IMG/VR virus record: IMGVR_UViG_2693429700_000004
Source of the DNA: a virus
Taxonomy: Duplodnaviria > Heunggongvirae > Uroviricota > Caudoviricetes
DNA length: 12,326 bases
Strand: one strand, 5' to 3'
Positions 7,657-12,326 of this stretch are shown here, piece by piece. The notes under the pieces were generated by a model. It was given only the letters and a program-made list of their open reading frames with translations. It was not told the DNA's origin and did not search any database. The translations under genes and the position numbers were made by a program. How positions within the stretch are numbered: the first letter of the stretch is position 1; each line of letters starts with the position of its first letter.

Positions 7657-7789
7657 ATTCATTACGATATGGGAATTCCCATATCGGGTAAAAACGGTTT
7701 GCGGTAAAGCGAGAGTTAAGTAGAATTGCTGCGGGTGCTTGAGGCTATCTGCCTCGGGCATGCCACCGTAAGGCAGACAGAGAAAAGCC

Positions 7790-7890
7790 CCAGTTAACAT
7801 TACGCGTCCGGCAAGACGCTTAACATTAATCTGAGGCCATATCTATGCTCTACACACGTAGGTTAGCCTCTTACGGACCGAAAGGTCAAG
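7790..7890 (-). ncRNA. sok: predicted Sok-like antisense RNA region (coordinates approximate)
   Basis: Inferred from hok/mok architecture. Minus-strand TTGACC (complement of 7885-7890) is a possible -35; the mok leader contains hairpins and a direct repeat TTAACATTA. Boundaries are not resolved from sequence. Confidence 0.3.
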
Positions 7891-8051
7891 GAGAAGCAGG
7901 CTATGAAGCAGCAAAAGGCGATGTTAATCGCCCTGATCGTCATCTGTTTAACCGTCATAGTGACGGCACTGGTAACGAGGAAAGACCTCTGCGAGGTACG
8001 AATCCGAACCGGTCAGACGGAGGTCGCTGTCTTCGTAGACTACGAATCTGA
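7845..8051 (+). CDS. mok: Mok-like overlapping reading frame (modulation of killing) of the hok locus
   Basis: 68-aa ORF starting upstream of hok and overlapping it in another frame, the canonical hok/mok arrangement. Confidence 0.55.
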   Translation: MLYTRRLASYGPKGQGEAGYEAAKGDVNRPDRHLFNRHSDGTGNEERPLRGTNPNRSDGGRCLRRLRI

Positions 8052-8058
8052 GAAGTAA
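7903..8058 (+). CDS. hok: Hok/Gef-family type I toxin (HokD/RelF-like), 51 aa
   Basis: Translation MKQQKAMLIALIVICLTVIVTALVTRKDLCEVRIRTGQTEVAVFVDYESEK matches the Hok family as I recall it, nearly identical to HokD/RelF except the C-terminal tail. AAGGAGAAG RBS. Not in the ORF track. Confidence 0.85.
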   Translation: MKQQKAMLIALIVICLTVIVTALVTRKDLCEVRIRTGQTEVAVFVDYESEK

Positions 8059-9217: not shown

Positions 9218-9507
9218 TGGTGGATTTACGTAAAGCGGCGCGGGGGCAGATGTGCACCGTCAGAATTCCTGGCTACTGCAATCACGATCCGGAAACGTCT
9301 GTGCTGGCGCATTACCGACTGGCGGGAACGTGCGGAACAGCGATAAAGCCACACGATATGCAGGCAGCGATTGCCTGTAGCTCGTGCCACGATTTAATCG
9401 ACGGGCGGGTAAAAACCGGCGATTACACCAAAGAAGAATTACGCCTGATGCATGCAGAAGGTGTTTTTCGCACACAAGAAATCTGGAGAAAGGAGGGATA
9501 TTTATGA
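9217..9507 (+). CDS. ybcO: DUF1364 / YbcO-like Cys/His-rich putative nuclease
   Basis: 96-aa ORF with spaced Cys/His residues (C13, C21, H23, C54, C57, H58); start overlaps the upstream stop (TAATG). Size and position match ybcO. Confidence 0.6.
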   Translation: MVDLRKAARGQMCTVRIPGYCNHDPETSVLAHYRLAGTCGTAIKPHDMQAAIACSSCHDLIDGRVKTGDYTKEELRLMHAEGVFRTQEIWRKEGYL

Positions 9508-10058
9508 TTTACCCAACGAATACAGGAAAAAGCGGAGAACACCTTCGTCTCACCACGCTGGAAAGTGTCTGGATTCAGGGAAAACTACGTATGTGGGGGC
9601 GCTGGTCGTATATTGGCGGCGGTAAGACGGGAAATATGTTTAACCAGTTGCTGACCTCTAAAAAGCTAACAAAAACGGCAATTAATGAGGCGCTCCGGAG
9701 GATGAAAAAAGCAGGTCTGGACAAACCTGAACTTGAGGCTTTTTTGCGGGATATGATCAACGGCAAGCAAAAAAGCTGGCTGGTGCATTGTACTGATGCA
9801 GAGGCGTTATGCATTGATCGGGTGATTAGTGAAGTGCTGGCAGAACACCCAGGATTGATTTGTATCCTCCGGCAAAGATATGAAGGGCGGGGGATGAGTA
9901 AGCGCAAAATGGCTGAATTGCTAAATGATGCACACCCTGAGTGGTGTTTTCGGACGTGCTGCAGTCGGGTAGATGTATGGCTAAATCTTGCTGAATATAT
10001 GCTCTATCTGCCGATGCGTGATGCATTCTCTTCCGGGTATTTAAAAACTGTCTGTTGA
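9504..10058 (+). CDS. late-gene antitermination protein Q-like
   Basis: ATG 9504 with AGGAGGG RBS (track start 9384 overlaps the previous gene and is unlikely). Last nin gene; a strong promoter overlaps its stop and a short terminated leader follows, the pR'/tR' arrangement. Contains a Cys cluster (CFRTCCS). Assignment is mainly positional. Confidence 0.55.
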   Translation: MIYPTNTGKSGEHLRLTTLESVWIQGKLRMWGRWSYIGGGKTGNMFNQLLTSKKLTKTAINEALRRMKKAGLDKPELEAFLRDMINGKQKSWLVHCTDAEALCIDRVISEVLAEHPGLICILRQRYEGRGMSKRKMAELLNDAHPEWCFRTCCSRVDVWLNLAEYMLYLPMRDAFSSGYLKTVC

Positions 10059-10084
10059 CTCAATCTGTTATCCGGGGCTATATT
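10055..10084 (+). promoter_or_regulatory. pR'-like late promoter
   Basis: TTGACT (10055-10060), 18-bp spacer, TATATT (10079-10084); overlaps the stop codon of the Q-like gene. Confidence 0.45.
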
Positions 10085-10146
10085 CCTCACGCGCCAGCAA
10101 AATCTGGCGTCGGGATTAGGAACCCCGGATAGAGACCGCGACAGAC

Positions 10147-10170
10147 ACACGCCGCGAGCGTGTTTTTTAT
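10147..10170 (+). terminator. tR'-like intrinsic terminator about 80 nt downstream of the late promoter
   Basis: ACACGC-CGCGA-GCGTGT hairpin followed by TTTTTTATT. Confidence 0.55.
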
Positions 10171-10331
10171 TGTCGTATGCACGCGCACATCTGAATTATG
10201 GTGGGGCGTATGGGGGAGCTGAAAAGCTCGCCGGTTGGTTTCCCGGTAGTTCCTAACCCTGTACGTCTCACCACCCGATGATTAGGAACCTGACGGTGGT
10301 GATGGTTTAGAAACCACCAGAGGGCGTCATT

Positions 10332-10913
10332 ATGACAACTCAAATTTCTGTTGAAACTCTCTCCCCGATCACCCATAACCAGATTCCTGTTATTACCACC
10401 GAACTTTTGGCGCAGTTGTACGGTGCTGGAGTTAAGAACATTCAAAATAACTACGCCAGAAATGCTGAGCGCTTTATTGAAGGAAAGCATTTTTTCAAAG
10501 TGGCTGGCGATGCCCTGAAAAATTTGCGGGTAGCTTTAAACTACTCACAAAATTTGCAACCATCTTTAAGAGGGTTACAAATTTCCCCGAAAGCCCGCTC
10601 CCTCATCCTCTGGACAGAACGCGGAGCAGCCCGTCATGCCAAAATGCTGGAAACCGATCAGGCGTGGGATGTGTTCGAAAAGCTGGAAGACTGCTATTTC
10701 AGACAAAAGGATCCGTCAGCGCCAGTTTCATGCCAGAAAAGTTACGACACGCGAGTTCTCTGTTATCAGAGAGGCGGTGTCACTGTTTCCACAATTCAGT
10801 TACGGGATGATGATATTGTTATTTCCCTTGAGTCATGGCTGGAACTGGCGAGAGCCAATGGTTGGTTTGTTGTTCGCAGAGATAAACTGGTGGAAAGGTT
10901 GATGCAGCTTTAA
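10332..10913 (+). CDS. ORF6N-domain (antirepressor-like) protein
   Basis: 193-aa ORF with AGAGGG RBS; N-terminal segment TELLAQLYGAGVKNIQNNYARNAERFIEGKHFFKV resembles the ORF6N/antirepressor N-domain as I recall it. Confidence 0.55.
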   Translation: MTTQISVETLSPITHNQIPVITTELLAQLYGAGVKNIQNNYARNAERFIEGKHFFKVAGDALKNLRVALNYSQNLQPSLRGLQISPKARSLILWTERGAARHAKMLETDQAWDVFEKLEDCYFRQKDPSAPVSCQKSYDTRVLCYQRGGVTVSTIQLRDDDIVISLESWLELARANGWFVVRRDKLVERLMQL

Positions 10914-11489: not shown

Positions 11490-12203
11490 ATGGCTGTTGT
11501 CTGTTCAGTTATCATGGTTTGCTCCCCAATTAATATTTTTCTTGAAAAGGATACGTTGTCACTTAAGCCAGGCTCAGTCGTTCTGGCCACCAAATGCATC
11601 AGGGAGCTTTTCCTTATGCATTATGGCAAAGTTAAAATTGTCGATATAAGCGAATCCGTCGTAAGTCAATATCTGGAAAGTCAGCATAAGCTGACGAGGA
11701 CTCGTCTGACTGACATTCCGCTTTACCTGTTGCTGGAACCCAACAATCCTGCGTTGGCTGCGGCTTTAATTACCAGCCAGGGATTTTCCGGAGAGGTCAC
11801 GGATATGTTTCTTATGATGGCCTGCCTGTCTCTGTTTGAAACAGATGAACGGATGTCATTGTTTTTAAGTGGATGTTTATCCAGCATAAGTGCCAAAGTC
11901 AGGGCGATAATTCAGACAGATATATCAGCAAGCTGGACGCTTGGTGCGATTGCTCTACAGTTGCATATGAGTGAGAGTTTGTTAAAGACAAAACTGAAAA
12001 ATGAAGGGGGCATGTTCAGTCGCTTGTTGCTGGAAGAGCGGATGCGTGTTGCTGTAAATATGTTATGTTCCCGGCATGGATATGGACAGGCTGTAGCAGA
12101 AAAATGCGGTTATTCAAGCAGGTCCTACTTTATTTCTGTATTTCACCGCTATTATGGCTTCCCGCCAGACAGATATGTATCCAGGCAAGGGCTTGATTAT
12201 TGA
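11490..12203 (+). CDS. AraC/XylS-family transcriptional regulator (AppY/YdeO/GadX/PatE-like)
   Basis: 237-aa ORF whose C-terminal HTH region (YGQAVAEKCGYSSRSYFISVFHRYYGFPPDRY) has the AraC signature, and whose N-terminus (MAVVCSVIMVCS) recalls AppY. AT-rich gene and flanks suggest a horizontally acquired moron. Confidence 0.8.
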   Translation: MAVVCSVIMVCSPINIFLEKDTLSLKPGSVVLATKCIRELFLMHYGKVKIVDISESVVSQYLESQHKLTRTRLTDIPLYLLLEPNNPALAAALITSQGFSGEVTDMFLMMACLSLFETDERMSLFLSGCLSSISAKVRAIIQTDISASWTLGAIALQLHMSESLLKTKLKNEGGMFSRLLLEERMRVAVNMLCSRHGYGQAVAEKCGYSSRSYFISVFHRYYGFPPDRYVSRQGLDY

Positions 12204-12231
12204 TTTTCATCTGATTATTATTTTTTGGCTC

Positions 12232-12307
12232 GGCCCTTTAGCTCAGTGGTGAGAGCGAGCGACTCATAATCGCCAGGTCGCTGGTTCAAATCCAGCAAGG
12301 GCCACCA
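12232..12307 (+). tRNA. tRNA with CAU anticodon, ileX/ileY-like (tRNA-Ile2, lysidine) and diverged from the host copies; tRNA-Met not formally excluded
   Basis: 76-nt cloverleaf: acceptor stem GGCCCTT/AAGGGCC, D-loop AGCTCAGTGG, anticodon loop CTCATAA, T-arm GGTTCAAATCC, encoded CCA end. Resembles E. coli ileX/ileY as I recall it, with compensatory stem changes. Confidence 0.85.
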
Positions 12308-12326
12308 ACCGCCACTAGCTCATCAG

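Follow-up and report, generated by a model that had tools for sequence, protein, structure and literature searches.

A CAU-anticodon tRNA gene in a Rac-site lambdoid prophage corresponds to ileZ, a predicted AUA-decoding tRNA-Ile2 of Escherichia coli prophages

A tRNA gene with a CAU anticodon lies at the right edge of a 12,326-nucleotide (nt) stretch of DNA from a virus of the class Caudoviricetes (IMG/VR record IMGVR_UViG_2693429700_000004), which was analyzed here at its full length and is referred to as the window. The locus raises the question of which amino acid this tRNA carries, and whether it is part of the phage or of the chromosome into which the phage had integrated. A preliminary description, made from the letters of the window alone, had offered two answers, namely a phage-borne tRNA-Ile2 or the chromosomal tRNA that served as attachment site. 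Judged by its sequence, the gene is ileZ, the already known tRNA-Ile2 cargo gene of lambdoid Escherichia coli prophages. With a probability of roughly 0.85, we interpret it as an AUA-decoding cargo tRNA that heads a cassette of four tRNAs in the late region of a prophage at the Rac site.

Identity of the tRNA gene

A single tRNA was detected by ARAGORN in the window (76 nt, anticodon CAT, positions 12232-12307 on the plus strand). The Rfam tRNA model (RF00005) agreed with this call and gave a full-length match of 72.5 bits (gathering score 29). At an E-value of 1.2e-14, the match is far beyond chance, and the CAU-anticodon tRNA described earlier was thereby confirmed at its position. Among the 21 stem pairs, only 27:43 is non-standard, and U8, A14, G18, G19, U33, T54, T55, C56, and A58 are all kept. 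The discriminator base is A73, and the CCA end is encoded in the gene. The preliminary description had also stated that the tRNA folds cleanly. This is true for the tRNA model, but not for the unconstrained minimum free energy structure of the unmodified sequence computed with ViennaRNA, which was an alternative long hairpin without a cloverleaf (z = -4.0). Minimum free energy structures other than the cloverleaf are common among unmodified tRNA sequences, and the predicted fold was given no weight. Over its entire length (76/76 positions), the gene is identical to the annotated ileZ of the Shiga-toxin phage 933W (NC_000924). The ileZ gene at this locus is thus real, and we regard it as almost certainly functional.

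The annotation of this gene differs between sources. ARAGORN and many GenBank phage records call it tRNA-Met, and 'one tRNA-Met' was described beside stx2a (PMC7946995). These labels arise because the anticodon is read literally, any CAT anticodon being 'Met' in ARAGORN. PGAP (NCBI), in contrast, labels every identical copy tRNA-Ile, and the gene is named ileZ in the annotation of 933W. For the choice between isoleucine and methionine, we used counts of differences from known genes, following the method of PMC1635315, together with the PGAP label, in place of tRNAscan-SE isotype scores. The gene differs at 25 positions from the elongator genes metT/metU and at 31 positions from the initiator gene metZ, compared with only 6-8 differences from the isoleucine genes ileY and ileX. 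E. coli TilS needs the pairs C4-G69 and C5-G68 (PMC1635315, PMC11947777), both of which are present in ileZ. The determinants for IleRS comprise A73, C4-G69, U12-A23, C29-G41, A37, and A38 (PMC9976931). All six are found in ileZ, which has a G in place of U at D-loop position 20a. The MetRS acceptor determinants U4-A69 and A5-U68 are absent, as are the initiator features A11-U24 and a mismatch at 1:72, following the criteria of PMC1635315 and PMC9976931. On this evidence it is extremely improbable that ileZ is an elongator or initiator tRNA-Met reading AUG, despite the many records that carry this name.

The suggestion that the gene is a diverged copy resembling host ileX/ileY, and not the host gene itself, was borne out by direct comparison. 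Relative to K-12 ileY, six differences were found (20a U>G, 26 A>G, 27 G>A, 43 U>C, 44 U>A, and 59 G>A). Relative to K-12 ileX, there are eight, consisting of the same six changes plus the acceptor pair 6:67, which is U6-A67 in ileZ and C6-G67 in ileX. The host genes and ileZ have in common the anticodon loop, the TilS acceptor determinants, the IleRS determinants, the length, and the encoded CCA, and the anticodon-stem positions 28-42 are the same as well. In contrast, positions 26/44 are G/A in ileZ and A/U in the host genes, and ileZ has G20a and A59. Their surroundings also differ, with the host genes adjoining mug/nfeF or ypjC and ileZ sitting in a prophage. Paired compensatory substitutions in the acceptor and anticodon stems, as had been proposed earlier, were recovered only in part. 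The acceptor pair 6:67 is such a change with respect to ileX, but not with respect to ileY, which already has U6-A67. In the anticodon stem, the change at 27:43 (window positions 12258 and 12274) is not compensatory, as the G·U wobble of the host genes is replaced in ileZ by an A·C mismatch, flagged as non-standard by Infernal.

The A27·C43 mismatch was considered as a mark of decay, and this explanation was rejected. A27·C43 and A44 are also present in the tRNA-Ile of a T4-like phage (U115), and the tRNA-Ile of P1 has G27·A43. Moreover, a 28-nt anticodon arm identical to that of ileZ occurs in tRNA(CAU) genes of distant phyla, including those of Methylococcus capsulatus, Meiothermus, Bifidobacterium, Gemmatimonadetes, Pirellulaceae, and others. 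Because 27:43 departs from Watson-Crick pairing in T4-like phages, in P1, in the host genes, and in tRNA(CAU) of distant phyla, such a pair seems to be an ordinary, recurring trait of the tRNA-Ile2 class. We also considered that ileZ might be the core ileX gene of another enterobacterium, such as Serratia or Lelliottia. This candidate was rejected too, as the matches lay again in tRNA arrays and none beside rpoD, mug, or nfeF. No donor of the ileZ allele was identified among the Serratia/Lelliottia-type enterobacterial matches.

Location in a prophage and relation to known tRNA cassettes

Over its last 1027 nt, the window shows 100% identity to the genome of E. coli Z1323CEC0019 (NZ_CP148401.1), and the whole window matches this genome except for the orientation of an insertion sequence (IS) end and a few small differences (a few 50-mers). 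In NZ_CP148401.1, the tRNA is located inside a lambdoid prophage at the Rac site, with ttcA next to intR on the left and an NleG-like gene next to uspF on the right. The left part of the prophage contains, in this order, intR, xisR, ralR, and recT, a cI/cro-like pair, ydaT, and hok/sok. The middle part comprises DUF1367 and DUF1364 genes, a Q-like DUF1133 gene, an ORF6N gene, an AraC-family gene, and four tRNAs. It is followed by a class II holin gene, terminase and tail genes including gpJ, and three NleG-like (DUF1076) genes, after which uspF is reached. By its position, the Q-like gene places the tRNA within the predicted late transcription unit. The preliminary idea of a phage-borne tRNA-Ile2 of the ileZ kind downstream of Q was thus supported, with a gene that matches 933W ileZ throughout, lies between the Q-like gene and the holin gene, and is called tRNA-Ile by PGAP; the enrichment of AUA in the prophage genes (see below) points the same way.

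The alternative of a chromosomal tRNA that marks the prophage boundary and served as attachment site did not hold up. Host ileX is a known island insertion site (table in PMC7545054), and the window ends 19 nt past the gene, so that the window alone is indecisive. In the near-identical genome, however, three more tRNAs and then holin, terminase, and tail genes follow downstream, and no core genes. Phage genes flank the tRNA on either side, and the distance is about 17.7 kb to the integrase end on the left, where intR/xisR adjoin ttcA, and about 17 kb to the right end at uspF. A direct repeat of the tRNA 3′ end at the other prophage boundary had been suggested as a check. No 14-mer or longer fragment of the tRNA recurs in the 62 kb spanning the prophage, and no 12-mer was found elsewhere in the window. 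In addition, the sequence is identical to neither ileX nor ileY. The interior position and the lack of a tRNA repeat exclude this explanation, and we assign it a negligible probability.

In NZ_CP148401.1, the tRNA array reads Ile(CAU)-Lys(UUU)-Thr(UGU)-Gly(UCC), with spacers of 1-3 nt. Its closest described counterpart is the pT-ileZ-argN-argO unit upstream of stx2 in phage 933W. In both, the same ileZ lies between Q with the late promoter on one side and the lysis genes on the other, is preceded at 9-10 nt by a promoter of the same layout, and belongs to an array that is closed by a terminator; in 933W, the flanking terminators are annotated. The two units differ in several respects: (i) ileZ is followed by Arg(UCG)-Arg(UCU) in 933W and by Lys(UUU)-Thr(UGU)-Gly(UCC) here; (ii) stx2 lies downstream in 933W, whereas no stx genes are present here; (iii) the promoter spacer and the leader differ; and (iv) terminators are found directly upstream of the tRNA unit in 933W, where the present prophage has the AraC-family gene. 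As ileZ is followed by Lys-Thr-Gly and not by argN-argO, the cassette represents a variant array around the same ileZ, and its Lys gene consists of an argN-family body with a different anticodon arm. Among 120 IMG/VR loci, ileZ is followed by Arg(UCG)-Arg(UCU) in 53, by Arg(UCU) in 28, by Lys-Thr-Gly in 13, and by other arrays in a few, with no further tRNA detected after it in 18. An Ile-Arg(UCU)-Thr-Gly array was also found in E. coli and Shigella.

More distant relatives are the tRNA-Ile(CAU) genes of T4-like phages and P1. As phage AUA decoders, these have the same anticodon loop and the same C4-G69/C5-G68 pairs as ileZ, but they differ from it at 15 (T4-like) and 11 (P1) positions and belong to tRNA clusters of virulent phages or of a plasmid prophage, whereas ileZ is part of a lambdoid late-region cassette. 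The slot itself is used by other phages as well. In SfI, Sf6, ST64T, and phage 21, Asn and/or Thr(UGU) tRNAs are located downstream of Q, at the same place as ileZ (PMC3636060). For the tRNAs of SfI-type lambdoid phages, a match to phage-enriched codons such as ACA was given as rationale, and no Ile2 was reported (PMC3636060). A 1997 report (Schmidt et al.), as quoted in the same paper, mentions an 'ileX tRNA gene' beside stx2.

A candidate promoter directly precedes the array (Table 1). The motif ends 10 nt before the 5′ end of the tRNA, and the stop codon of the AraC-family gene lies in its -35 region. Its conservation was assessed in 36 distinct 70-nt upstream contexts from IMG/VR that are mutually unrelated farther upstream. 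All 36 keep TAT(T/C)AT 9-10 nt before the tRNA. A TTG is located 17 nt upstream of this hexamer in 34 of them, and a T at -22 is present in every one, while spacer and leader vary. In 933W, the equivalent site is annotated as 'pT; putative tRNA promoter'. Host ileX and ileY share an ATTGCG...-10 promoter layout that is homologous to that of ileZ and, for this reason, promoter and tRNA gene were probably captured together. A strong intrinsic terminator was predicted by a scan after the tRNA array (positions 15450-15465 of L001, the analyzed stretch of NZ_CP148401.1). As the array is located downstream of the Q-like gene and of a pR'-like promoter, late read-through into the array during lytic growth is plausible. 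Q-modified polymerase would, in this case, have to read through the terminator of an IsrK-like RNA to reach the tRNAs.

Conservation, codon demand and possible function

In all 5426 E. coli genomes (5426/5426), at least one Ile(CAU) gene was found (median 3, maximum 14). With a threshold of 99% identity, the ileZ allele itself was found in at least 2730 complete E. coli records and in 278 phage records, most of the latter from Stx2a and Stx2c converting phages. Of 120 IMG/VR matches to a degenerate pattern, 106 carried the exact allele, and none of the 120 was an intermediate between the ileZ and ileX states. For an estimate of conservation, loci were gathered via the neighboring argO gene, which avoids anchoring on ileZ itself. 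Among 118 argO-anchored loci, 103 contained ileZ with 76/76 identity, 12 contained it with 1-3 differences or a slightly shorter alignment, and three were without ileZ. In the 108 comparable loci, the mean pairwise difference per site was 0.0015 for ileZ (6 alleles), 0.09 for the segment between ileZ and argO, i.e. the argN slot (50 alleles), and 0.30 for the 76 nt upstream. Relative to ileZ, the adjacent tRNA slot is thus about 60 times and the upstream 76 nt about 200 times as variable.

These values bear on the possibility that ileZ is an inert relic, a captured tRNA hitch-hiking in the late region. In favor of a relic, the prophage is degraded, decayed copies of ileZ exist (e.g. in E. coli A1_181), and in many phages the argN slot beside it shows clear decay or fast evolution. 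That ileZ is far more strictly kept than its surroundings speaks against it. Furthermore, the structural and identity nucleotides are all intact, and the promoter hexamers are kept across unrelated upstream contexts. Altogether, we consider a relic very unlikely.

Codon usage was compared between 34 intact prophage genes (6250 codons) and a sample of 40 core genes of K-12 (15,040 codons). The AUA frequency, for which a comparison between prophage and host had been proposed, was 9.4 per 1000 codons in the prophage and 2.5 per 1000 in the core sample, an enrichment of 3.7-fold (Fisher p = 1.4e-10). The corresponding prophage/core ratios were 2.6 for ACA, 2.4 for GGA, 5.7 for AGA, 8.7 for AGG, and 1.0 for AAA. 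In the three NleG-like genes, AUA reached 27.7 per 1000 codons (about 11-fold relative to the core). The AraC-family gene, an AT-rich accessory gene, contains four AUA among its 237 codons (16.9 per 1000) and is a likely user of the tRNA. Since AUA, ACA, and GGA are enriched, the Ile, Thr, and Gly tRNAs of the cassette fit a role in codon supply.

According to the function we propose for ileZ, the cassette would be transcribed independently, from the sigma-70 promoter that directly precedes it to an intrinsic terminator past the last tRNA, so that expression would be possible in the lysogen. Its location downstream of the Q-like antiterminator and the late promoter implies that lytic induction would raise this expression. 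Host tRNA-processing enzymes would trim the precursor, in which CCA is already encoded, and host TilS, recognizing C4-G69 and C5-G68, would turn C34 into lysidine. IleRS would then charge the tRNA with isoleucine, and the charged tRNA would decode AUA only. This would increase the capacity to decode AUA, which E. coli core genes use rarely and prophage and accessory genes 4- to 11-fold more often, and a fitness benefit may follow.

Several points weigh against this proposal. The benefit from AUA supply is correlative, and the make-up of the cassette as a whole goes beyond what codon supply can explain. A tRNA-Lys(UUU) is present despite the lack of AAA enrichment, and for AGA and AGG, the codons with the strongest enrichment, this array contains no Arg tRNA. 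The consensus scan for promoters, taken alone, did not exceed chance, with six sites compared with 4.4 expected in the region. The prophage carries IS insertions and a truncated terminase-tail region, so that a benefit during the lytic phase may no longer apply. In the literature examined, no report of expression, modification, or charging was found for this ileZ copy or for the allele. Finally, six linked substitutions relative to ileY are fixed, for which the proposal gives no reason.

In a rival explanation, ileZ would be a spare tRNA for counter-defense, its fixed six-substitution allele escaping a tRNA-cutting toxin or defense nuclease that inactivates host tRNA-Ile2, and would not simply add to AUA decoding. 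For the Lys, Thr, Asn, and Tyr species, it is established that phage tRNAs can resist anticodon-arm nucleases (PMC11464382, PMC12409363, PMC12445682, PMC11555353). The ileZ allele, which is fixed, matches neither host gene and has changes in the D loop and in the uppermost part of the anticodon stem, and the Lys(UUU) tRNA that follows it resembles an escape variant. However, the anticodon loop and stem positions 28-42, as noted above, do not differ from those of the host, and no tRNA-Ile2-specific nuclease was found in the literature examined. The nuclease AriB left tRNA-Met(CAU) uncut, and tRNA-Ile is not among the reported targets of AriB or OLD. In addition, two further cassette members, Thr(UGU) and Gly(UCC) (L001 15089-15164 and 15168-15242), are 100% identical to host thrU and glyT, respectively, which speaks for dosage and not for escape. 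A role of ileZ in counter-defense is therefore unlikely. In a related scenario, the six fixed changes might make ileZ functionally distinct, for example by resistance to an undescribed nuclease acting on the anticodon arm or D loop or by better handling through TilS or IleRS. The whole promoter-ileZ-Lys(UUU, C33)-Thr-Gly cassette would then be a constitutively expressed counter-defense module. There is nothing in positive support of this for ileZ itself, and we give the scenario a low probability. AUA-decoding cargo thus remains our preferred interpretation of ileZ.

Neighboring tRNA slots and further features of the window

Within the cassette, the Thr and Gly genes are, by sequence comparison, simple additional copies of host genes, which is true of neither ileZ nor Lys(UUU). 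P2 OLD prefers tRNA-Thr(UGU) as its target, and this tRNA is also among the prime targets of PARIS AriB. The Lys(UUU) gene, of which the window contains only the start, is unusual in several features: (i) its anticodon loop reads C32-C33-U-U-U-A-A, with the near-universal U33 replaced by C; (ii) it has a C1-G72 end pair and a U73 discriminator; (iii) it scores only 44.4 bits with the Rfam model; and (iv) it bears no relation to host lysT. It shares homologous arms with the Arg(UCG) gene 'argN' of Shiga toxin (Stx) and O104:H4 prophages, except for the anticodon arm, which differs. Positions 36-41 read UAAGUU, and PARIS AriB cuts UAAUCA in host tRNA-Lys. Lys(UUU, C33) may be a nuclease-escape tRNA-Lys.

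Variation in the second slot of the array is not limited to this prophage. Across the loci compared (L013-L132 and L171-L222 from IMG/VR, L002 7014-7090, and L005 5078-5145), the slot is hypervariable, with about 30 distinct alleles of Arg(UCG). On this tRNA body, UCU, UUU, and a non-standard AUU anticodon occur as well, and AAA in one case. One Stx2c phage has a second-slot tRNA whose anticodon arm is deleted. The second slot appears to swap anticodons or to decay, unlike the invariant ileZ beside it. A decayed ileZ was observed in a prophage remnant of E. coli A1_181 (L010 3001-3076), with C42>A breaking the 28:42 pair and with T54>G. This prophage is truncated, its holin gene being fused to a tail gene fragment, and its array reads Ile-(gap)-Thr-Gly, with the second slot not called as a tRNA.

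The features of the window that surround ileZ are listed in Table 1. Gene coordinates were transferred from L001 with an offset of 2701 and are approximate in the left part of the window.

Table 1. Coordinates of ileZ and of associated genes and candidate signals in the 12,326-nt window
Feature	Position	Strand	Basis
Q-like late antiterminator gene	9504..10058	+	Pfam DUF1133 (353 bits), Phage_antitermQ (26.5 bits), PGAP coordinates
Candidate pR'-like late promoter, TTGACT, 18-nt spacer, TATATT	10055..10084	+	Scan (L001 12756-12785 shifted by 2701); directly after Q-like gene
IsrK-like short RNA with terminator	10091-10168		Rfam isrK (69.4 bits); terminator L001 12848-12864
AraC-family regulator gene, 237 amino acids	11490..12203	+	Pfam HTH_AraC and HTH_18; GC content 0.44
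Candidate sigma-70-like tRNA-array promoter, TTGATT, 17-nt spacer, TATTAT	12193..12221	+	Consensus scan (9/12) and conservation
tRNA-Ile2 gene ileZ, anticodon CAU (lysidine-AU once modified)	12232..12307	+	ARAGORN, Rfam, identity to 933W ileZ
Start of Lys(UUU) tRNA gene, first 18 nt, cut by window end	12309..12326	+	Near-identical genome; full gene L001 15010-15086

The pairing of the AraC-family gene with ileZ recurs in O104:H4 and in many other prophages. Its product may belong with the PatE/Psr type of AraC-like regulators encoded by prophages of enterohemorrhagic E. coli (see the review PMC10877973).

Where the late operon begins, right after the Q-like gene and its strong promoter-like site, additional RNA elements are located. 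IsrK is an Hfq-binding RNA. Next to its counterpart in the window, a C4 antisense RNA was detected (10194-10278, 67 bits). The a1/b1 target of the C4 RNA is located at 10078-10131, and a gene with an ORF6N domain at 10332-10913. The region 10055-10913 resembles a c4-ant immunity module of the P1/P7 type or an isrK locus of the Gifsy type. Farther upstream, a hok/sok type I toxin-antitoxin locus spans 7733-8058, consisting of a sok RNA (7733-7905, 105 bits) and an open reading frame for a 51-amino-acid Hok/Gef protein (7903-8058). At the left edge, the first ~100 nt of the window (within 1-150) match the end of IS1203, an IS3-family element, in the opposite orientation to the left IS copy in NZ_CP148401.1. 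Given this end and the few differing 50-mers, the window is no exact part of NZ_CP148401.1 and stems from another assembly of the strain or from a very close relative.

The gene at the edge of the window is the same one that is annotated as ileZ in 933W and that occurs in roughly half of complete E. coli genomes; in this respect, the present locus adds nothing new. The tRNA-Met label given to ileZ is wrong and spreads from ARAGORN and GenBank phage records into papers. For lambdoid prophages, ileZ constitutes a sharply conserved marker of the late region. The neighboring second slot is more deserving of experimental attention than ileZ itself, and Lys(UUU) with its C33 is the more curious tRNA of the two.

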